DNA of 32,000 nucleotides, from positions 990,001 to 1,022,000 of the forward strand of contig NZ_CP089976.1 of the NCBI RefSeq assembly GCF_022701215.1, read 5' to 3'. The notes beneath the pieces are model-generated. The model saw nothing but the letters and a program-made list of their open reading frames with translations, did not search any database and was not told where the DNA came from. This DNA is from Moraxella nasovis. GTDB taxonomy: Bacteria; Pseudomonadota; Gammaproteobacteria; Pseudomonadales; Moraxellaceae. Each line of letters begins with the position of its first letter. Position 1 is the first letter of the stretch. Shown here in pieces: positions 6,424-32,000 of the stretch. The translations under genes and the position numbers were made by a program.

Positions 6424-8298
<1,875 letters not shown>

Positions 8299-8369
8299 TT
8301 AACAAATCAAGCCAATAAAGAAATTTTGCCCGTATGGTTGCCAATGGCGGAAAAATGACTTTGATTAAC

Positions 8370-8462
8370 TTGATTCCTACGGCAGTATTAACTGCATCAG
8401 GTTCAACGGATTTTGTGTTAAAAGACACAATCTCGGCAATCTAAAATTGCACTCCGTCAAGT
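8370..8462 (-). promoter_or_regulatory. TPP (THI-box) riboswitch in the thiC leader
   Basis: The minus strand reads GACGGAGUGCAAUUUUAGAUUGCCGAGAUUGUGUCUUUUAACACAAAAUCCGUUGAACCUGAUGCAGUUAAUACUGCCGUAGGAAUC. It contains the conserved GAACCUGAU...UAAUAC...CGUAGGAA core. A GCCGAGA element stands in for the usual GCUGAGA. Confidence 0.85.
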
Positions 8463-8638
8463 TAATTACATTGTAACACAACAAATCCCCAAAAAACCAA
8501 ACCATATTTTTTGATAAACATAAAATATTTTTATCTTTTAGGGAAAGTCTCTTGTTATTCATCAGTGTGCTTGTTATCATATGGGGTTGTTATCATTTGG
8601 TTGTCATTTTGTTATTCAAGGATTGTATAAGGATTGCT

Positions 8639-10461: not shown

Positions 10462-12969
10462 TCAAACATCTATTTTATCAAATTCATCTCGCCCCACCAC
10501 CGTATTATAAAGCCCCACCTTGTCTTTGTGTCTGTCTAGCCCTGTGTATTCTAGACTACTGTCTTCATAGCGTTTAAATTTATATACCGCATCATTCATC
10601 AGACTGCCATTAAAGACATTTAGGCGGTTTAGCAGAGCAAAATCTGATTGCGTAAGACCTGTTACACGGCGAAATAAATCAGGTTCAAGCTGGGTAATCA
10701 CATCTTCTAGACAATGCTCACGATAATCGGTCAGATACATAAATATGGGTATGCGTGTGGCGAATTTGATGAGTTTTTCTTGGATTTGTTTGCGAAGCGA
10801 TTTGTATTCTTTTTCTTCATCGCTAAGTTCTTTTTTCTCTTTGGGTGTCAGCTCATCGCCTTTTTCTTTTTTTGTTTTTGCCACGTTTTCAGATTTATTG
10901 ATGATTGTCTCAATGTCTTGGTTTAGACTTCTAAATCCTTCAATACCCATTAAAGCTTTCATCGCTTTATCATCATTCATCAGCCGTGTCAATGTGTCGT
11001 TATCCACATTAACAAGTAAAGCACTCTCCCACCGCCGTGCCAAAAGTGTGGCAGTCGTGCCACTCATCGCCATGTCTAGAACGCCGCCTGCATCTATCTG
11101 CTTCATCGTGCTACCATCATAGGCAAGCACAGGCAAAAAGCGGATAAACTCACCCACCTTTTGTTCAGGATTGGTGTTCGTGTTGTCCAACCGACAGCTG
11201 TATTCAGCGATTTGGCGTAAGGCTCTATTGGGAGCAAAATCAAAGACATAGCACTGCTCTTTTAAGATGGTCTCGCCATGTGGGTCGGTGGGGTCATAGT
11301 TTTTAAGCACCCAAGGGGTCTGCACCCGAAATGCCGCCTGAAAATAAGTCTCTGGGCTTGTGGTATTACGGAGCATAAAAATCCCCGTCCACGGAGCGAC
11401 CGATACGCCTGTGGTGAGCTTACCGCAGGAGAGCGTGATGGTCTTGGTGGTCAAAGGATTGCTGCCCATCGCCTGCTGTACAGGGGGCAAGGCTTCTACA
11501 CCAATACCTGCCTGCGTGCCTGCACAGACGATAATTTTATACTCATGAAAAAACTGATTTTGTTTTTGGGCCAATAAATTATTCATCGCAAAACAGCTCG
11601 CCACAGATGGCAAAAACCAAAAAGTATGCAGTAGCCCATTTTTTAGATGCACATCACTAAATGGCATGGGCGGTTTTTTTGCCCCCATTTTTAGGGTGTC
11701 TACGGTCATCTCAGGCAGTTTGTTTTGGATAAATTCTAGCCAGCGTTGCACTTCGTTCTCATGGATAAACCGTGCCGTATCGCCATCACCTGTCGCACGA
11801 AAAAACTCATTTAAATCAAATTCATTAAACTCGCCTTTCTTTGCCACATCACGAATGCTATCAGGGAGCTGATAGGTCATCATCACCATCTTGGGTAGTG
11901 ATAAATACGGATTTTTGCCGTATGTGTCGTCCCACTCGGCTTTGGCTTTTTGTTCGTCTGAATACGTCCAGTTAAAAATCTGCTCTTCAATAAATTCGCC
12001 TGACGACATCGCCCGAAATGGCGTGCCTGACAAATACAAATAGTGGTCTGTGGTAATCGGCAAAAGCTCTTGGTCAAAGTCTTTTAAAAATGAGCTTTCG
12101 GCAAATTCTTGCTCTTTTTTGTCGGTTTCGCCATCAAATAAATCACGAGCATTCTCACGCCACGCCCCATAATGATATTCATCAAAAATCACGCAGTCCC
12201 AATTTAGGGCGTGTACCCATTCATTTTTGGCTTTGATACCGCCTGATCTGGTTTTGCCCAAAAAGTCTTGAAATGACCCAAAGCAGACAATCGGGCGATT
12301 TTTATCCGCCGTGTCAATCGTCAAATCGCTGTTTTTGCTGATGAACTGCCAACCTACAAAATCCACATGGCTTTTTAGGTCATTTTCCCAAGCATCTTGC
12401 ACCGCAGGCTTGAACGTCAAAATCAGTATACGCTCCCAACCCATCGCACGGGCAAGCTGATAACTGGCAAAAGTCTTGCCAAATCGCATTTTGGCATTCC
12501 ACAAAAATCTGGGCGATTTGCCATGATTGGCAGGCTCTGCCGAAAAACTCTCAAAATACGCCTTGGTGCGTGCCACCGCCTGTGCCTGCTCAGGACGTAG
12601 CCCAAAATCTGCCGTGCGCCTGTCCGCCATCGCCTTGCCTGTCTTAACAGTCAAAAATGCCGAATGGACATCGTCTAGTGTGCAAGCGAACCACTCGCCA
12701 TTTGGTCTGTCAAAACCCATCTTAATCAGGGCTTGATGAATGGCATGGTCGCTAAATGTCGTGCCGTCATCACGAACCGCCAGCTCATCAAAGACAATCC
12801 GCCAGCTCTGGCGTGGTGTGGCAATCGGATACTGTGCCTGCACACGTTCCAAGGCGGTCTTGGTGGTGTAGCCGACCTTGATACAGCCGTCAAACCGCTC
12901 ATCGGTATAGGCATAAATGCGGGGTGGGTTTAGGGTGTCGGTGAGATTGACGGGGGTTTGTGGGTTCAT
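10462..12969 (-). CDS. T5orf172/GIY-YIG-like N-terminal domain fused to an SF2 (ResIII/DEAD-like) helicase; candidate effector of the island operon
   Basis: 835 aa. Residues ~17-100, RIYAYTDERFDGCIKVGYTTKTALERVQ...GEWF, match the T5orf172 (MUG113, GIY-YIG superfamily) pattern. The helicase has motif I AKMRFGKTF (~158-167), motif II VIFDEYH (~260-266) and motif III LSGTPFRA (~313-320). The C-terminal region has a charged coiled-coil-like stretch, KEKGDELTPKEKKELSDEEKEYKSLRKQIQEK. The ATG overlaps the upstream stop (ATGA). Confidence 0.8.
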   Translation of the reverse strand: MNPQTPVNLTDTLNPPRIYAYTDERFDGCIKVGYTTKTALERVQAQYPIATPRQSWRIVFDELAVRDDGTTFSDHAIHQALIKMGFDRPNGEWFACTLDDVHSAFLTVKTGKAMADRRTADFGLRPEQAQAVARTKAYFESFSAEPANHGKSPRFLWNAKMRFGKTFASYQLARAMGWERILILTFKPAVQDAWENDLKSHVDFVGWQFISKNSDLTIDTADKNRPIVCFGSFQDFLGKTRSGGIKAKNEWVHALNWDCVIFDEYHYGAWRENARDLFDGETDKKEQEFAESSFLKDFDQELLPITTDHYLYLSGTPFRAMSSGEFIEEQIFNWTYSDEQKAKAEWDDTYGKNPYLSLPKMVMMTYQLPDSIRDVAKKGEFNEFDLNEFFRATGDGDTARFIHENEVQRWLEFIQNKLPEMTVDTLKMGAKKPPMPFSDVHLKNGLLHTFWFLPSVASCFAMNNLLAQKQNQFFHEYKIIVCAGTQAGIGVEALPPVQQAMGSNPLTTKTITLSCGKLTTGVSVAPWTGIFMLRNTTSPETYFQAAFRVQTPWVLKNYDPTDPHGETILKEQCYVFDFAPNRALRQIAEYSCRLDNTNTNPEQKVGEFIRFLPVLAYDGSTMKQIDAGGVLDMAMSGTTATLLARRWESALLVNVDNDTLTRLMNDDKAMKALMGIEGFRSLNQDIETIINKSENVAKTKKEKGDELTPKEKKELSDEEKEYKSLRKQIQEKLIKFATRIPIFMYLTDYREHCLEDVITQLEPDLFRRVTGLTQSDFALLNRLNVFNGSLMNDAVYKFKRYEDSSLEYTGLDRHKDKVGLYNTVVGRDEFDKIDV

Positions 12970-13647
12970 TGGGTTTTTCTCGCTTTTAAGAAAAATTCAA
13001 TTTCATCATTTTGAACTTTTTGATGATAAAAATTTAAAAAATCTTGTTCAAGATATTTATGACCATCTAATAAAAAAGGAATATGATTTCCCAAATCATT
13101 TGGCGAGATAATTAAATCTAATTTATCCGTCAATTCATTTTTATCCAAAAATTCTTGAACAATTTGTGTCGTTGTGGGATTACTATATAAATCAAATTCT
13201 TGATAATTTAATCCATCAATTGACGCCAGTTCTTTTCGTTTTTCGTATTTAAAGTCTTGAATAACATCTTGACAAAATTCCTTAAAATTTTCAAAATCTG
13301 TTGGCTTTTTAATCGCTTTTGTTGATAAAATAGAAACCTGTCGGAATTTGCTTTTATCTGACAAATCTCTAATATAAAAACATTTTTTTGCTATTTCTAT
13401 TACGAATTTCTTTTGGTGGATAATCCACATAAAATTCACAATTATCCAAATCAAAATGCTGTTTTAACTCATCTCTACCGCTATAAAAACAGCTTAAAAA
13501 ATCTTTTAAATCCAAAATATCATCAGCATTAGTAACAATACCGCCCAAATTTTGCTCGGCATTATCCCTAATAGATTGAAAATGTTTAACTAGATTAGTT
13601 TGATTAAAAGATACATTGCGTGTTTTTAACGTATAATTTTTACTCAT
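12966..13647 (-). pseudogene. unknown-function gene (~226 aa if intact) split by a frameshift at an A7 tract
   Basis: The N-terminal part (ATG 13647, MSKNYTLKTRNVSF...EIRNRNSKKMFLY*) stops at 13369. The C-terminal part continues in the +1 frame to 12966 (...KKCFYIRDLSDKSKF...KARKTQ*). With A6 instead of A7 at 13383-13389 the two parts join as ...NSKKCFYIRDL.... I recognise no domain. Confidence 0.6.
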
Positions 13648-15175
13648 TTTCAAGCTCCATCGGTCTAACCATCTTTTCAATAAAAGCAATCTCATCATCA
13701 GATAAACCATATTTTTGATACAATTCATCATCTGTCCACGATTTTGAAAAGTCTTGCATAGGTACGAATTGATAAACTTTTTGAGTTCCATCTTGTGTAT
13801 TCTTTTTAAGTAGAACCAAAAAGCGGAAAAATCTTGTACTAATATAAGACATTACATTTTTGCAAATTTGTTCATTTTCAAATGTTCCAATAACTAAATA
13901 AGTTTCTGTACAAGCTGTATTTGGTTTACCCAAAAATGGTTTTCCTAATACCCAAAAATTAGATGAAATTCTTTCCCCATAAGCTCTTGCAATATAAACT
14001 TTATACTGATTAACCCAATTTCTATTCCTATCTATATCATTTAAACTTATATAATTTATACCATCGCTTGTATACAATTCAACACTGTTACTATTTGATT
14101 TTGATTGTCCACGATATGATGTAGAAAAACCGAATGGCTTTCTTGAACTAACCAAATTTGAAAAACTTTTTTCTTTAAAATTTTTAATCTTTCTTAATAT
14201 AGAAATTGCCTGATTAAAACGAATAAAAGTTTCAGTGCCATCTTCTTTTAAATATCTATTCATTCTTGAAACAATACTATTTCCTTCAATGGTTTCCACC
14301 AAGCAAGTTCCAGAGTGGCTCTTATCCCACAAAAAATAAGAAACCCCGCCTGAAATATCCACGCCTGGAAAGCAATCATTTGAATCAATATAATCAACCA
14401 AAACTTTTAGACGTCTATCATTTAGCATTTCATCACGAAATTCATCAAGCCCTTTTCCACCTGCAAACCAACGACTAGGCGTAATCATAATCAGATAATG
14501 CGGATTTAATTTTTTGGCTTGCTGGATAAATTTATGATAAATAGGCGTGGCACTTGCAGAAGCACCACCATCCGATAATTGATACGGCGGATTACCAATA
14601 ATTACATCAAATTTCATTTTACTAATTTCCAATTCATAAAAAGATGGGTGGATAAATGCATACGCATGGGTCTCAAATTCATGCTCACGGCTGATACTGC
14701 CGTTACTTTTGTCATAGACATCTTGACTTGCTCCACAGGCTGTGCATTTGCCGTTTTGCCATGTATGCTCGCTTTGGGGGAAAAAGATATTGCCATCATT
14801 ATCATCAAATGCTGTACAAATGCTGTATTCTCCCCCTGCTCGCTTGGCACAATAGACGCTCCGCCGTGATAATAGAGCGGTCAGATGTGTGATGGCGATA
14901 CCGTAGAGTTGCTGGCTAAATATATGATTGAGCCGTTCTTGTAGGTCTGGGATTTGGTGTTCTAAGCCTTTGATGAGACGTTTGGTGATTTCTCGTAGGA
15001 ATACACCTGATTTGCAGACAGGATCCAAAAATGTCGTGTTTGGATTTTCAAATAATGCCTGGGGCAGTCTGTCCAATATTTCATTGACGAGCTTTGGCGG
15101 GGTAAAAACTTCATCATTGGATAAATTGGCAAGGCATTCCAAAACGTCTGGGTTGTAATTGATTAAATCACTCAT
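13640..15175 (-). CDS. N6-adenine DNA methyltransferase, gamma-class Eco57I-like, with a large C-terminal putative target-recognition region
   Basis: 511 aa. It has N-terminal DEVFTPPKLVNEILD, motif I variant FLDPVCKSGVFL, and motif IV FDVIIGNPPYQL (NPPY at residues 195-198, nt ~14582-14593). About 310 aa follow motif IV. Confidence 0.85.
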   Translation of the reverse strand: MSDLINYNPDVLECLANLSNDEVFTPPKLVNEILDRLPQALFENPNTTFLDPVCKSGVFLREITKRLIKGLEHQIPDLQERLNHIFSQQLYGIAITHLTALLSRRSVYCAKRAGGEYSICTAFDDNDGNIFFPQSEHTWQNGKCTACGASQDVYDKSNGSISREHEFETHAYAFIHPSFYELEISKMKFDVIIGNPPYQLSDGGASASATPIYHKFIQQAKKLNPHYLIMITPSRWFAGGKGLDEFRDEMLNDRRLKVLVDYIDSNDCFPGVDISGGVSYFLWDKSHSGTCLVETIEGNSIVSRMNRYLKEDGTETFIRFNQAISILRKIKNFKEKSFSNLVSSRKPFGFSTSYRGQSKSNSNSVELYTSDGINYISLNDIDRNRNWVNQYKVYIARAYGERISSNFWVLGKPFLGKPNTACTETYLVIGTFENEQICKNVMSYISTRFFRFLVLLKKNTQDGTQKVYQFVPMQDFSKSWTDDELYQKYGLSDDEIAFIEKMVRPMELENE

Positions 15176-15861
15176 TTTTTATACTCCTTGTCGCTTAAAT
15201 CAATATCCAAAAAATACACAGGCGGGTATTCTTTTATCGGCTCAGGGATATAAGCGTCATCGCCCAAATCCGAAAATAACGGCAATTCACGCTCGCTGGA
15301 TTTATTGATTAAATCAGGATAGACATATTCACGGCGTATCATATCCGTGCCAAGCATTGACCATTCACTAAACACAATGGGCGTGCCGTCTTTCTGCTTT
15401 AATGATAAAGCATCTCCACATAAGATATTTTTTGATAATAAAAAACGTGCCACGTCTATACAGCGTGGGTTAATGTTTTTAAAATGAGATGAGTAATGAT
15501 TTTGAAAAATCGCTAATAACCGCTCACGACATTCAGCGACATTGTCAGCCAACAGCTCAATACCATAAATGGAGCTAATGGCGGTAATGGCGTTTAATTC
15601 GTAGTTGTATTGAATTTTTTTGTGTTTTTGGTAAATGGCGGTAAGTTTTCGCTGTAATATCACCGCAAGAAAATTCCCCGTACCACAGGCAGGCTCTAAA
15701 AAGGTGGCTTCGGGGTCGGTGCATTGGTGAGCGACCAAATCAAGCATGGCATTGACTTCACGCTCATTTGTATAAACTTCGCCATGGTCTTTGATACGCT
15801 CACGAGACTTGGTCTGAGATGGGGACTGGGGGTGTGTTTGAGTGGCTGATTTAACTTGCAT
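15172..15861 (-). CDS. methyltransferase-like SAM-binding protein lacking the catalytic (D/N/S)PP(Y/F/W) motif
   Basis: 229 aa. It has GEVYTNEREVNAMLDLV (like the GEVFTP helix), canonical motif I FLEPACGTGNFL, motif II/III-like YGIELLADNV, and ILCGDALS. I could find no NPPY-type tetrad in the sequence. Its stop overlaps the next ATG (ATGA). Confidence 0.7.
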   Translation of the reverse strand: MQVKSATQTHPQSPSQTKSRERIKDHGEVYTNEREVNAMLDLVAHQCTDPEATFLEPACGTGNFLAVILQRKLTAIYQKHKKIQYNYELNAITAISSIYGIELLADNVAECRERLLAIFQNHYSSHFKNINPRCIDVARFLLSKNILCGDALSLKQKDGTPIVFSEWSMLGTDMIRREYVYPDLINKSSERELPLFSDLGDDAYIPEPIKEYPPVYFLDIDLSDKEYKK

Positions 15862-15952
15862 GGGATTGCCCCGTGCAGGTCAGATGGTTTGCTAAATGAG
15901 ATAAGAATGGGGTATGATGGGATACTAAGAGATTTTGGGTATGGCTTAGACT

Positions 15953-16106
15953 AGGTACGCAGGTACGCAGGTACGCAGGTACGCAGGTACGCAGGTACGC
16001 AGGTACGCAGGTACGCAGGTACGCAGGTACGCAGGTACGCAGGTACGCAGGTACGCAGGTACGCAGGTACGCAGGTACGCAGGTACGCAGGTACGCAGGT
16101 ACGCAG
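15953..16106. repeat. perfect tandem octanucleotide repeat (AGGTACGC)x19 plus a partial unit; the minus-strand unit is GCGTACCT
   Basis: Counted directly: units start at 15953 + 8k for k = 0 to 18, with no substitutions. It lies 92 nt upstream of the first ATG of the island operon (15861). Confidence 0.97.
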
Positions 16107-16178
16107 AGCATTATAGCGGGCAAATACAGCCTGTCAAGACAATACATGACAATTTCCAATAAAAAGTGAGAAAACTTG

Positions 16179-16207
16179 ATTCTATCATAAATAATAATAC
16201 CAACCAA
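16179..16207 (-). promoter_or_regulatory. putative sigma70 promoter upstream of the repeat, which would place the repeat in a ~310-nt leader
   Basis: The minus strand reads TTGGTT (16207-16202), a 17-nt spacer, then TAGAAT (16184-16179). This rests on sequence pattern only, and other promoters cannot be excluded. Confidence 0.3.
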
Positions 16208-16405: not shown

Positions 16406-17968
16406 TTACTCCCACTCAATGGTCGCAGGTGGCTTGCTACTGACATCATATACCACACGAGACACATCACGGATTTCATTCATGATACGAGTTGAGATTT
16501 TATCCACCAAATCATAAGGCAAATGGGCAAAGCGTGCCGTCATAAAGTCCACCGTCTCAACCGCACGAAGTGCAATCACCCACGCATAACGTCTGCCATC
16601 ACCGACCACCCCTACCGACTTGACAGGCTGAAATACCGCAAATGCCTGTGCCGTCTTATCATACCAACCAGACGCACGAAGCTCCTGCATAAAGATGTCG
16701 TCCGCCATACGCAAAATATCGGCGTATTCTTTTTTGACTTCGCCCAAAATCCGCACGCCAAGACCCGGACCTGGGAATGGGTGGCGATAAATCATGTGAT
16801 GGGGAATGCCAAGTGCCACACCCAATTTGCGTACTTCATCTTTGAATAAATCACGCAGCGGCTCAACCAGTTCAAACGCCAAATCATCAGGCAAACCACC
16901 AACATTATGGTGCGATTTAATGACATGAGCCTTGCCTTGCTTGCTTGCCGCCGATTCAATCACATCAGGATAAATCGTCCCTTGCGCCAAGAATTTCACG
17001 CCATCTAGCTTACGTGCTTCTTCTGAAAACACTTCAATAAATTCTCGTCCGATGATTTTGCGTTTCGCTTCTGGGTCTGTTACGCCTGCCAATGCCATCA
17101 AAAAACGAGACTCAGCGTCAGCACGAATCACACGAATGCCCATATTCTGGGCGAACATTTGCATAACCTCATCGCCTTCATTTAGGCGTAATAAGCCATT
17201 ATCCACAAAAACGCAGGTTAATTGGTCGCCAATCGCCTTATGCAAAAGTGCCGCCACCACCGAACTATCCACACCGCCAGATAAGCCAAGCAATACCTTT
17301 TGGTCGCCGATTTGCTCTTTTAGTTGGGCGATGCGTAGCTCAATGATGTTCTCAGAATTCCACGCATGACCACAGCCACAAATACCATGTACAAAATTAG
17401 AAATCAGCACCACCCCTTTGTCGGTATGCGTAACTTCTGGGTGAAACTGCACCCCATAAAAGCCACGATGCTCATCGCTGGCAGATGCATACGGACAGCT
17501 AGGCGTGCTTGATGTGCTAACAAATCCTTCTGGCAATAAAGATACTTTATCCCCATGGCTCATCCACACTTGGACTTGGTTTTTGTCGTTGGCGATGTTA
17601 CTGAGCAAACGGTCTTGGTGTAATACGTCAATCTCAGCATAACCAAATTCATGCACCAAGCCAGCTTCTACCTTGCCACCAAACTGCTCTGCCATCGTCT
17701 GAAAGCCATAGCAAATACCAAGCACAGGTACGCCAAGCTCAAACACCGCTTTGGGGGCACGTGGACTGCCTGCCTCATGGACGCTCTCAGGACCGCCAGA
17801 TAAAATGATGCCTTTTGGATTAAAGGCTTTGATGTCATCATCAGACATATCAAACGCATACATCTCAGAATACACGCCAGCTTCACGAACACGGCGAGCG
17901 ATAAGCTGGCTGTATTGTGAGCCAAAATCTAGGATTAAAATGCGGTCAGTGGTGATGGTCTGCGTCAT
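16406..17968 (-). CDS. guaA: GMP synthase (glutamine-hydrolysing)
   Basis: 520 aa with the N-terminal GATase ([27 protein letters not shown]), the ATP-PPase P-loop SGGVDSSV, and the C-terminal PPATIEWE. Confidence 0.96.
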
Positions 17969-24506: not shown

Positions 24507-24646
24507 GCCACAATACTCCAAAAAAAACACCCTTAACGGTTCAGCTAAGACTAAGTCACTCAATTTACATGAGTTCATACACAAATATCATTAAGTGCAT
24601 ATAGTAACACAGCTTAAATCAATAGCCAAGAATTTTTGATTAAAAT

Positions 24647-24853
24647 TGTGGATAACTTTATGGAAAACTCTGTTTATAACTTTATCAACAGAGTTTTCCA
24701 CAGTTTATTGACAAAGTTTAAACAAATTTTTCCACAATATAAGTTAATGTTTTTAAATAAATTAATTAACTTTTCCACAATTTTAGTATCTCTTTATTAT
24801 TATTATATTCTCTATTTATTTTAAGAATAAGAAAATTAAAAATCTGTGGATAA
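24647..24853. other. candidate oriC: DnaA boxes plus an AT-rich unwinding region in the dnaA-rpmH spacer
   Basis: Perfect TTATCCACA boxes in reverse orientation at 24647-24655 and 24845-24853. One-mismatch TTTTCCACA boxes at 24694-24702, 24728-24736 and 24771-24779. 24781-24840 is about 12% GC by hand count, with repeated CTCT(T/A)TTTATT-like elements. Gene orientation diverges here. Confidence 0.7.
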
Positions 24854-24974
24854 CATTTTAAATTTTGTAATTTTTGCTAAAAAATAAAGGCATAAAATCT
24901 GTTCTTAGGACATCTATATAACACCATATTAGTACCACCAATAAGATGCGATTATCACTAAAAACAAAAAAATA

Positions 24975-25003
24975 TTTGACCTTAAAAATCATTTTTAGTA
25001 TAA
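24975..25003 (+). promoter_or_regulatory. strong sigma70 promoter for rpmH-rnpA
   Basis: TTGACC (24975-24980), a 17-nt spacer, then TATAAT (24998-25003). Confidence 0.65.
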
Positions 25004-25067
25004 TGAGTAAGATTTTTGCTAATCTTAGGCAAAAAGAATTTAAATTTGTCATTCATTAGTGACTTAA

Positions 25068-25262
<195 letters not shown>

Positions 25263-29861: not shown

Positions 29862-30900
29862 TAGTAGTGATTATACATTTATGCAAGCTGCCTTAGGTCT
29901 TGCCAAAAAAGGACTGTATACCACTCGCCCTAACCCTTGTGTTGGTTGTGTTATTGTTAAGGATAACTTAATAATCGGACAAGGTTTTCACCCTAAAGCA
30001 GGACTGCCACATGCCGAAATTTACGCCTTAAATGACGCTAAAGCACATGGGTATGATATAAAAGGAGCGACTGCGTATGTAACGCTTGAGCCGTGTAGTC
30101 ATTATGGGCAAACCCCACCTTGTAGTAAAGCACTGATAGAAAGTGGTATCAATAAGGTGATTATCGCTACTTTTGATCCTAATCCGCAAGTGGCAGGTCG
30201 TGGCATATCTATGCTACAAAATGCAGGTATTGACACGCAAATAGGCGTGTGTGAGCGTGAAGCACGCAAGCTTAATGCAGGGTTTTTAAAGGCGATGGCA
30301 ACAGGTTTGCCATATGTACGCGTCAAAATTGCCACAAGCCTAGATGGCCGCACAGCGATGGCAAGCGGTGAGTCAAAATGGATTACAGGTGAGATGGCAC
30401 GAATAGATGTGCAAAAGCTTCGTGCTAGAAGTGGGGCTATTATTACAGGTTCAAGGACGGTTTTGGCGGACAATCCTGCATTAACGGTTCGTCTTGACAC
30501 GCTTGATTTGGTAAATATTTCGCCACCTAAAATTGTGGTGATGGACAGAACGGGTAAATTAAAAAATACCGATAATTATCAGGTATTTAACAATAAAAAC
30601 ACCCTACTTTGGCAAGATGATATTAAGAGTTTGCTGCAAACATTAGTAAGTGAGTATCAATGCTATGACGTGCTTGTAGAGGCAGGCAGTACACTTGCCA
30701 CGAGTTTTTTGATAGCAGGATTTGTTGATGAGCTGATTGTGTATCAAGCCCCTTGTTTGCTTGGTAAAACAGCAAGGGCGATGTTTGATGGTAAATTTGA
30801 TCAGTTAGCCGACAGATTAAGCTTTAATTTAGAGAGCTGTGAGCGATTAGGTGATGATTTAAAAATGACATTTGGGCAAAAACCACAGTGTCGTAAATGA
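29854..30900 (+). CDS. ribD: bifunctional riboflavin biosynthesis protein RibD (deaminase/reductase)
   Basis: Deaminase zinc motifs HAEIYAL and LEPCSHYGQTPPC, then the reductase domain. The start at ATG 29854 (MTDSSDYTFMQAAL) overlaps the nrdR stop (ATGACTGA). Confidence 0.92.
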   Translation: MTDSSDYTFMQAALGLAKKGLYTTRPNPCVGCVIVKDNLIIGQGFHPKAGLPHAEIYALNDAKAHGYDIKGATAYVTLEPCSHYGQTPPCSKALIESGINKVIIATFDPNPQVAGRGISMLQNAGIDTQIGVCEREARKLNAGFLKAMATGLPYVRVKIATSLDGRTAMASGESKWITGEMARIDVQKLRARSGAIITGSRTVLADNPALTVRLDTLDLVNISPPKIVVMDRTGKLKNTDNYQVFNNKNTLLWQDDIKSLLQTLVSEYQCYDVLVEAGSTLATSFLIAGFVDELIVYQAPCLLGKTARAMFDGKFDQLADRLSFNLESCERLGDDLKMTFGQKPQCRK

Positions 30901-30901
30901 G

Positions 30902-31153
30902 TTATCCACAGATTTGTATTGCATAATCAAACACGCCAAAACCGCCATAAAAACATGAATAACATCTGTGGATAACTTAAATTTTAGAACGCATGTTAGA
31001 CGGCTGATGATGATATTAGGTTGCTAAGCCTTTTATTATCAAAGGCTTAGAATAAACTAAGAATATTTTTAGTTTCACGTGAAACAAATTTTGATTGTGG
31101 ATAAGTTTTAAACATTATTGATGGTTACCGTGTGTATAATTAAGTTATCCACA
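30902..31153. promoter_or_regulatory. cluster of four perfect DnaA boxes in the ribD-ribE spacer
   Basis: TTATCCACA at 30902-30910 (forward), 30967-30975 (reverse), 31096-31104 (reverse) and 31145-31153 (forward). An AT-rich tract at 31261-31330, about 11% GC by hand count, follows. Confidence 0.8.
31072..31085. repeat. 14-bp palindrome copy, perfect (GTTTCACGTGAAAC)
   Basis: Intergenic, inside the ribD-ribE DnaA-box cluster. Confidence 0.9.
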
Positions 31154-31344
31154 GCATAACTTTTTAATTATCCTGATTGGTGGCTTGATGTGTATGTGAG
31201 AGTGTTAATGGTTGTGAAGACTGTTTGTTTTGACTATCATAAAATATCAATTAACCGAATGATTGATTTTTTAAATTAATAATAATCTTTAATAACAGCA
31301 TTAGTATGTATTAATAATTTAAAAAATTAAACAATGGGTAAATT

Positions 31345-32000
31345 ATGTTTACAGGCATCATAGAAACCACAGGCACGCTCACCGCCATCATCCCCACAGG
31401 TGGAGATGTGCGATTGGTCATATCTGCCCCCAAGCTTGATTTTACTGATGTGAAATTGGGTGATTCTATTGCGTCCAACGGCATCTGCTTGACGGTGGTT
31501 GCCATAGATGGGACAAGTTATGCAGTAGATGTTTCATGTGAAACTTTATCTACCACCGCTTTGGGGGTGTGGCGAGTGGGCGATACGCTCAATCTAGAAA
31601 AGGCAATGCTTCCTACCACTCGTTTTGGCGGTCATATTGTCGCAGGTCATGTGGACGGCGTGGGTAAAATCGCCAAAATCGCCAAGGACGCACGTTCGGT
31701 ATATATAGAAGTGGTGTTGCCGCCAGAGATTATGAAATACACCGCTGACAAAGGCTCTATCACTGTGGACGGCATTTCTCTTACGACCAACCGCATTAAG
31801 CACAACCAAAACATCGTCTGCCTAAATATCATACCGCATACCGCCGATATGACCAACATCGCCAAGCATTGGGCGGTGGGTCGTGCGGTCAATATAGAGG
31901 TGGATTTGGTGGCACGCTATTTGGAGCGACTTGTTTTTGGGAGAAAAGAGTGTGAAGCAAAGACAAGTAACATCACCGAAGAGTTGTTGATAAAAAGCGG
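31345..32000 (+). CDS. ribE: riboflavin synthase (alpha chain); 3' end at or beyond the window edge
   Basis: My own translation from ATG 31345: MFTGIIETTGTLTAI...LGDSIASNGICLTV...GHIVAGHVDGVGKI...GSITVDGISLTTN. It shows the two lumazine-binding repeats. No stop occurs before nt 32000, so it is absent from the ORF track. Confidence 0.9.
   Translation, partial: MFTGIIETTGTLTAIIPTGGDVRLVISAPKLDFTDVKLGDSIASNGICLTVVAIDGTSYAVDVSCETLSTTALGVWRVGDTLNLEKAMLPTTRFGGHIVAGHVDGVGKIAKIAKDARSVYIEVVLPPEIMKYTADKGSITVDGISLTTNRIKHNQNIVCLNIIPHTADMTNIAKHWAVGRAVNIEVDLVARYLERLVFGRKECEAKTSNITEELLIKS
31531..31544. repeat. 14-bp palindrome copy, central variant (GTTTCATGTGAAAC)
   Basis: Lies inside ribE, where it is translated as VSCET. 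Confidence 0.8.

Follow-up and report, generated by a model that had tools for sequence, protein, structure and literature searches.

Clusters of DnaA boxes that lie outside the origin of replication are known as a kind. The Escherichia coli site datA is found about 470 kb from oriC and needs an IHF site between its boxes 2 and 3. The DARS core consists of three closely spaced DnaA boxes, to which DARS2 adds sites for IHF and Fis (PMC4585315). In Bacillus subtilis, the DnaA-box clusters (DBCs) studied by Okumura et al. (2012) lower initiation together with Spo0J/Soj; they are non-essential and sit beside ordinary genes, one of them next to thdF (mnmE) (PMC3245932). For Caulobacter crescentus, binding of DnaA to the centromere/parS region is reported by Mera et al. 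(2014), as reviewed in PMC6399470. In the bipartite origins of Helicobacter pylori (oriC1/oriC2) and B. subtilis (incAB/incC), two box clusters lie near dnaA, which alone separates them, and only one contains an unwinding element. How initiation is timed and linked to segregation without the controls specific to E. coli is understood in few model species.

Here we describe a cluster of this kind from Moraxella nasovis, located between ribD and ribE in a window (the whole stretch of DNA that was analyzed) of 32,000 nt, and follow it through Moraxella and Psychrobacter. With the B. subtilis DBCs it shares consensus DnaA boxes that are intergenic and lie outside oriC, yet near it. It differs from them in being gammaproteobacterial, in that its boxes number just four and follow a fixed (+ - ... 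- +) plan whose spacings change in helical-turn steps, and in carrying parS inside the cluster as well as a composite of parS and box. Like datA, it offers several high-affinity boxes in non-coding DNA outside oriC, and spacing matters (here in the form of two classes one turn apart). Unlike datA, it is only 6 kb away from oriC, and the IHF consensus WATCAANNNNTTR occurs in just 1 of 61 distinct intervals between the third and fourth box, a count based on the E. coli consensus. A datA-like site was among the readings offered by the original prediction from this DNA: an extra-origin DnaA site, datA- or DBC-like, does fit best, but the IHF site between the boxes is missing.

DARS1 and DARS2 resemble the cluster as non-coding groups that include oppositely oriented boxes. 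The DARS-like site that had also been proposed is nevertheless set aside, because three close boxes are not seen: neighboring core boxes stand 48-134 bp apart, with nothing else conserved. The Caulobacter region has in common with ours that boxes adjoin parS and that the origin is a few kb away; phylum and layout are different, the Moraxella boxes persist in spacers that lack parS, and a role in segregation would be putative in Moraxella. Two box clusters near dnaA with an unwinding element in one of them recall H. pylori and B. subtilis; in contrast to those bipartite origins, seven genes intervene here (one in a rearranged lineage), and the Moraxella oriC looks complete without the second cluster. 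No description of the element in Moraxellaceae was found in the literature searched (Moraxella/Psychrobacter oriC; DnaA box with ribD). Its four-box grammar with helical-turn spacing classes, its embedded parS and the composite of parS and box appear to be new.

Gene names in the window were checked by NCBIfam. The minus strand carries gyrB, recF, dnaN and dnaA, to position 24584, and the plus strand rpmH, rnpA, yidD, yidC, mnmE, nrdR, ribD (to 30900) and ribE (from 31345). The ribD-ribE spacer comprises the 444 bp at 30901-31344, between the ribD stop codon (30898-30900) and the ribE ATG at 31345. Perfect 9-mers of the form TTATCCACA number eight in the 32,000 nt against 0.28 expected, and none of 100 shuffles got to eight. 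Only two spacers contain any: the dnaA-rpmH spacer, with two perfect boxes and four with one mismatch, and the ribD-ribE spacer, with four and one, respectively. The latter is laid out as follows.

30902..30910, plus strand: Box1, a perfect DnaA box, 1 nt past the ribD stop codon; position and orientation are kept in relatives
30967..30975, minus strand: Box2, also a perfect DnaA box; it converges on Box1, and the two starts are 65 bp apart
31024..31050: hairpin with a 9-10-bp stem, -13.8 kcal/mol, z = -2.9
31071..31086: candidate parS AGTTTCACGTGAAACA, with a perfect 14-bp core GTTTCACGTGAAAC at 31072-31085
31096..31104, minus strand: Box3, a perfect DnaA box
31131..31139, minus strand: one-mismatch DnaA box TTATACACA, overlapping a TATAAT hexamer
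31145..31153, plus strand: Box4, again a perfect DnaA box; it diverges from Box3, whose start is 49 bp away from its own
31212..31240, plus strand: best sigma-70-like match 5' of ribE, TTGTGA-17-TATCAT, 3' of all four boxes; weak evidence
31261..31330: AT-rich tract before ribE, 11.4% GC

The coordinates of the four perfect boxes, two in each orientation, are those that the original prediction had given. Its further statements that three of them share the extended context GTTATCCACAG with the box at 24845, that the box at 31096 reads CTTATCCACAA, and that this spacer has more perfect boxes than the dnaA-rpmH spacer (four versus two) likewise hold. The hairpin and the AT-rich tract of about 70 bp, to which it had also pointed, are real but specific to the M. 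nasovis genome: the hairpin, which contains one match to the IHF consensus (TATCAAAGGCTTA), lies in a Box2-Box3 interval that is unconserved in relatives and is not shared by them, and the tract is absent from them. A promoter scan of the spacer returned five sigma-70-like matches against 3.6 expected.

Other contents of the spacer were considered and rejected. An RNA element was dropped, as Rfam gave nothing at its gathering threshold and, at E < 1, no matches better than chance. Against a small protein stand the wholly internal ORFs, all of at most 29 aa, and the unconserved sequence between the boxes; a 64-aa ORF at 31311-31505 overlaps the 3' end of the spacer. A mobile or plasmid origin was discarded as well, the spacer having no match in the plasmid collection.

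The second spacer with perfect boxes is most likely oriC itself, judging from its box architecture and from the strand composition discussed below, and is located about 6 kb to the left of the ribD-ribE cluster.

24585..25127: candidate oriC, the dnaA-rpmH spacer
24647(-), 24682(+), 24694(+), 24728(+), 24771(+), 24845(-): oriC boxes
Bracketed by 24771(+) and 24845(-): AT-rich element, 12% GC

The plan of the dnaA-rpmH spacer is kept in 43 distinct spacers. It consists of opposed arrays, with 5-10 boxes at 11-12-bp steps, which are followed by a last (+) box, 73-81 bp of 12-24% GC and a terminal (-) box; the AT-rich element contains (TAT)n/(AAT)n runs.

How widely the ribD-ribE cluster occurs was assessed in 97 loci of Moraxella/Psychrobacter type. 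These came from four species genomes, seven exact-protein look-ups of RibE homologues, 80 metagenome loci, five loci anchored on DnaA (M. catarrhalis and M. marmotae among them) and the window itself. In 78 of them ribD lies directly 5' of ribE, which yields 75 distinct spacers of 84-854 bp. An outgroup set of 76 ribE loci (1.2 Mb) served for comparison. Many loci are related, and all counts given here thus overstate the number of independent events. The closeness of the relatives varies: RibE of the window is 83-85% identical to RibE of M. nasibovis and M. bovis, and the order dnaA-rpmH-yidC-mnmE-nrdR-ribD-ribE is common to relatives at protein identities of only 45-85%.

Every one of the 75 distinct spacers has at least one perfect box, and all except one have at least three boxes with no more than one mismatch (74/75). 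Perfect boxes occur at a density of 6.2 per kb in these spacers versus 0.0074 per kb in the 1.2 Mb of outgroup ribE loci, and in all 76 outgroup loci the 600 bp 5' of ribE are free of boxes. The DNA between the boxes, in contrast, shows no conservation among the relatives' spacers, neither a conserved ORF nor an Rfam match. The cluster is thus conserved across Moraxella and Psychrobacter, which answers the check on related species that had been suggested. It also bears out the earlier idea that the spacer is maintained for a function of its own: the box plan is kept in 75 distinct spacers and the intervening DNA is not.

What is kept is an arrangement. In relatives it reads Box1(+), Box2(-), a variable middle, Box3(-) and Box4(+), and it is found in M. 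catarrhalis, M. marmotae and the three other DnaA-anchored loci, too. Box1 and Box2 are spaced 55-56 or 63-65 bp apart. Between Box2 and Box3, ten reference loci have 102, 112-113, 123 or 134 bp; the 129 bp of the window is the sole value out of phase with this series. The Box3-Box4 pair, of the pattern TGTGGATAA-N38-40/N48-51-TTATCCACA, is present in 72 of 92 loci, and in these 72 (61 distinct sequences) its spacing is only ever 47-49 or 57-59 bp, without intermediates; the M. canis/M. catarrhalis type has 60 bp. On the RibE tree the two classes interchange at least six times. Since spacings switch only between classes, insertions and deletions seem to be accepted only if they change the spacing by about one turn of the helix at a time. 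A search of 66 distinct sequences for a further recurrent box with up to two mismatches at a fixed offset of up to 60 bp from Box3 or Box4 found none. The distance from Box4 to the ribE ATG, in turn, ranges from 10 to 449 bp in relatives. The plan can outlast the boxes' strength: in M. catarrhalis (L168:3121-3402) and in L002, L096 and L099-L101 it is kept with spacings of 65, 102 and 60 bp, while the boxes of this M. catarrhalis/M. canis type are weakened to one perfect, two one-mismatch and one two-mismatch copy in a spacer without parS.

Rearranged genomes give a view of what the cluster is tied to. Wherever it is found, it lies within 7 kb of dnaA. In five loci (L103/L109/L121/L122/L126; for example, L109:2089-3600) the order is DUF294 gene, cluster of DnaA boxes and parS, ribE, oriC-type spacer, dnaA, dnaN, so that ribE points toward the origin and is the sole gene (about 1 kb) between the box clusters. 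As this gene order indicates, cluster and ribE have moved as a unit in the L103/L109/L121 lineage and are still beside oriC. Elsewhere ribE has left the vicinity of dnaA. One end of a 10-kb inversion in L087/L093/L094 falls into the ribD-ribE spacer; ribE is away from dnaA there, with no boxes at either junction; in L165, ribE is also away from dnaA and no cluster is present. That the cluster is missing where ribE is away from dnaA argues that it is dispensable, as regulatory sites are. A different arrangement is seen in L084 and L098, where the spacer is reduced to 84 bp and contains two perfect boxes in tandem at a distance of 12 bp. The nrdR-ribD spacer has an identical pair, and single perfect boxes precede yidC and mnmE.

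8745-8775 in L084 (same in L098): tandem box pair
9925-9950 in L084 (same in L098): tandem box pair

Judged by these loci the element is plastic, and every copy found lies close to the origin and 5' of ribE.

Within the cluster lies a second kind of site. The original prediction had noticed the 14-bp palindrome at 31072-31085 but had missed its identity: it is a canonical parS motif, that is, a predicted ParB-binding centromere site. A review table gives tGTTNCACGTGAAACa and close variants as parS for many phyla (PMC7022226), and positions 31071-31086 fit this 16-bp palindrome. The Ori-Finder paper, starting from the palindrome TGTTTCACGTGAAACA, proposed TGTTTCACG as a 'species-specific DnaA box' of Bradyrhizobiaceae (PMC2275245); that palindrome is the parS consensus. 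With up to two mismatches allowed, the window contains seven parS-like sites against 0.14 expected, on both sides of dnaA.

1533, 16324 (intergenic): parS-like sites
20725: parS-like site in recF
28993 and 29098: parS-like sites in mnmE
31072: parS-like site in the ribD-ribE spacer
31531..31544: parS-like site in ribE, GTTTCATGTGAAAC, one mismatch, at codons 63-67 (VSCET; VSRET in relatives)

In their distribution the seven are the usual origin-proximal scatter of putative parS sites. The window itself does not contain parAB. Some relatives have an unusually high density of parS, with 9-10 perfect sites in 16-21 kb.

Two of these positions stand out in the comparison. Between one and four parS-like sites lie between the boxes in 63 of the 75 distinct spacers, and in many relatives such a site directly adjoins Box2. 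In 35 distinct loci parS and a DnaA box, usually a one-mismatch box, follow each other with zero gap (GTTTCACATGAAAC|TGTGTATAA and variants; consensus form GTTTCACRTGAAAC|TGTGGAWWA), an arrangement seen at none of the 228 other parS-like sites of the sampled loci. The parS of the window does not abut a box but is at a distance of 10 bp from Box3. The other position is the in-frame site in ribE (ATG+186, up to two mismatches), which is present in 78 of 85 distinct ribE genes of Moraxella/Psychrobacter type, perfect in 50 of them, and in 0 of 76 outgroup genes; this suggests selection for a putative centromere site within coding sequence. Boxes without any parS are seen in the remaining 12 of the 75 spacers, among them those of M. 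nasibovis, M. porci, M. caviae, M. canis and M. catarrhalis. As the boxes persist there, they appear to be the core of the element.

From these patterns, the ribD-ribE spacer is most likely a control site for replication or segregation beside the true origin, not an origin itself. In its more specific form, that of an extra-origin but origin-proximal DnaA-box cluster of DBC or datA type coupled to ParB sites, we give this reading about an even chance. DnaA, in its ATP or ADP form, would occupy the four consensus boxes (of R1/R4 type). The fixed orientations (+ - ... - +) and the spacing steps of about one helical turn suggest that the bound molecules act together, and they may cooperate, for example, by looping or bridging the DNA. 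Being so close to oriC, the site would be replicated seconds after initiation, which would double the local strong DnaA sites; these could then compete with oriC for DnaA, or bring about its inactivation, and so exert negative or timing control over initiation. The parS within the cluster, one copy often abutting a weak box, would link occupancy by DnaA to the loading of ParB at the origin domain. Several observations speak against this picture: four sites are few for pure titration, an IHF site of datA type and the geometry of DARS are both missing, the Box2-Box3 distance of the window (129 bp) does not fit the phase of its relatives, the boxes are weakened in M. catarrhalis and M. canis, and some lineages have no cluster. 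The constant place of the cluster directly 5' of ribE, even after rearrangement, also leaves some probability for a role in ribE expression.

A bolder version can be put forward tentatively, as we regard it as more doubtful than the above. Moraxella and Psychrobacter might carry a dedicated DnaA-ParB composite beside oriC, in which phased strong boxes bracket parS and a weak box is fused to it, and on which DnaA and ParB would compete or cooperate on the same DNA, so that initiation would be tied to the loading of ParB and to the segregation of the origin. If this were true, the composite would correspond, in a gammaproteobacterial group, to the centromere that DnaA binds in Caulobacter, and its sequence grammar would be defined and open to mutation.

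The emphasis could also be reversed. Segregation would then be the primary role, with DnaA at the boxes gating or assisting the loading or movement of ParB, and any effect on initiation would be secondary. The sites between the boxes in 63 of 75 spacers, the zero-gap composite that is confined to this cluster (35 distinct loci against 0 of 228 other parS sites), the in-frame ribE site (78/85 versus 0/76) and the seven parS-like sites that the window has on both sides of oriC all point this way, as does the precedent from Caulobacter (PMC6399470). We nevertheless consider it unlikely, given that 12 of the 75 spacers hold boxes without parS, that many parS sites of the region have no boxes, and that parS and Box3 of the window do not touch but are 10 bp apart.

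Transcriptional control by DnaA, which we hold to be quite unlikely, would make the boxes operators or roadblocks that respond to the level of DnaA, either for ribE and the downstream fmt-rsmB or as a block to read-through from nrdR-ribD. The cluster does always lie directly 5' of ribE and moved together with it in L103/L109/L121. Several species have no more than 19-30 bp between Box4 and the ATG, so that any ribE transcript must there start within the cluster or run through it. In addition, the window has no terminator after ribD, and the DBCs of B. subtilis regulate neighboring genes too (PMC3245932). The geometry, though, is tightly kept from box to box and not from Box4 to the ATG (10 to 449 bp), no promoter-like site occurs at a fixed offset from the boxes in the relatives' spacers, and the best promoter match of the window is 3' of all boxes. 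Furthermore, ribE does without boxes in two lineages and in the 76 outgroup loci, four phased boxes with parS exceed the needs of an operator, and a regulatory logic connecting riboflavin synthase with DnaA is not evident.

Could the cluster instead be the auxiliary half of a split origin, whose complex pairs with that at dnaA-rpmH by looping so that both are needed for normal initiation? Read in reverse complement, the cluster has the order (- + ... + -), which mirrors the skeleton of strong boxes in oriC. Divergent (-,+) pairs spaced 47-49 or 57-60 bp, the same classes, are found outside the spacer upstream of ribE only in the origin upstream of dnaA (1.29 Mb of loci). Besides, in one lineage ribE alone (about 1 kb) separates the two clusters, and bipartite origins with looping are known (PMC3479198). 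We still judge this decidedly improbable. The two are separated by seven genes and 6 kb in the window as in most relatives, oriC has arrays and an AT-rich element and is complete alone whereas the cluster has neither, the strand-composition switch is at dnaA-rpmH, some lineages have no cluster, and the two share no homology beyond the boxes. For the latter reason the cluster was also rejected as a recent duplicate of oriC. We take the shared pair geometry as a constraint that would stem from the geometry of DnaA complexes, not as a sign of a second origin.

The place of long-term initiation can be read from GC3 skew. On the plus strand, recF, dnaN and dnaA have values of -0.25 to -0.33 (dnaA -0.33), and rnpA, yidC, mnmE, nrdR and ribD values of +0.13 to +0.31. 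Plus-strand genes of the left arm, which would be on the lagging strand if the origin is near 25,000, have -0.17 to -0.36; because they are negative, the sign appears to be set by replication and not by transcription. The genes between the two clusters are skewed as the leading strand of a rightward fork, which places long-term initiation at or to the left of rpmH.

Of the features by which an origin is recognized, a box cluster is present in ribD-ribE (four perfect and one one-mismatch in 444 bp). Arrays of strong and weak boxes at 11-12-bp steps are found in dnaA-rpmH and not in ribD-ribE, and the inter-box DNA of the cluster has 17-43% GC versus 12-24% for the conserved oriC element. The tract at 31261-31330 is not a shared unwinding element, since it is unconserved and Box4 can be as close as 10-30 bp to the ATG. 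The switch in strand composition, too, is at dnaA-rpmH and not at ribD-ribE. The suggestion that the ribD-ribE spacer is the true origin is thus not supported: skew flips at dnaA-rpmH, and the cluster has neither arrays nor a conserved AT-rich element. Origin predictors that count boxes could still pick this spacer, as it contains more perfect boxes than the real origin here.

Returning to an extra-origin cluster coupled to parS as the preferred reading, the locus is a compact target that is conserved in a group including the pathogens M. catarrhalis and M. bovis. Its strict four-box geometry together with parS is suited to point and spacing mutations that test titration or inactivation of DnaA, crosstalk between DnaA and ParB, and looping to oriC.

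Some other features of the window may be mentioned. A perfect DnaA box at 11000 lies inside a helicase-like ORF, and the guaA coding sequence has one perfect and three one-mismatch boxes within 370 bp (17199-17568). Between a gene of the RidA family and guaA extends an island of low GC (about 10462-16207; 28-37% GC at 13-15 kb), which contains an 835-aa helicase-like ORF (T5orf172 and ResIII) along with a number of short, overlapping ORFs that have methylase domains of Eco57I/MmeI type; the island probably represents a restriction or defense locus that was acquired and is now fragmented in part. Finally, a TPP riboswitch (8357-8466, minus strand, 83.9 bits) is located 5' of thiC (6424-8277, minus strand).
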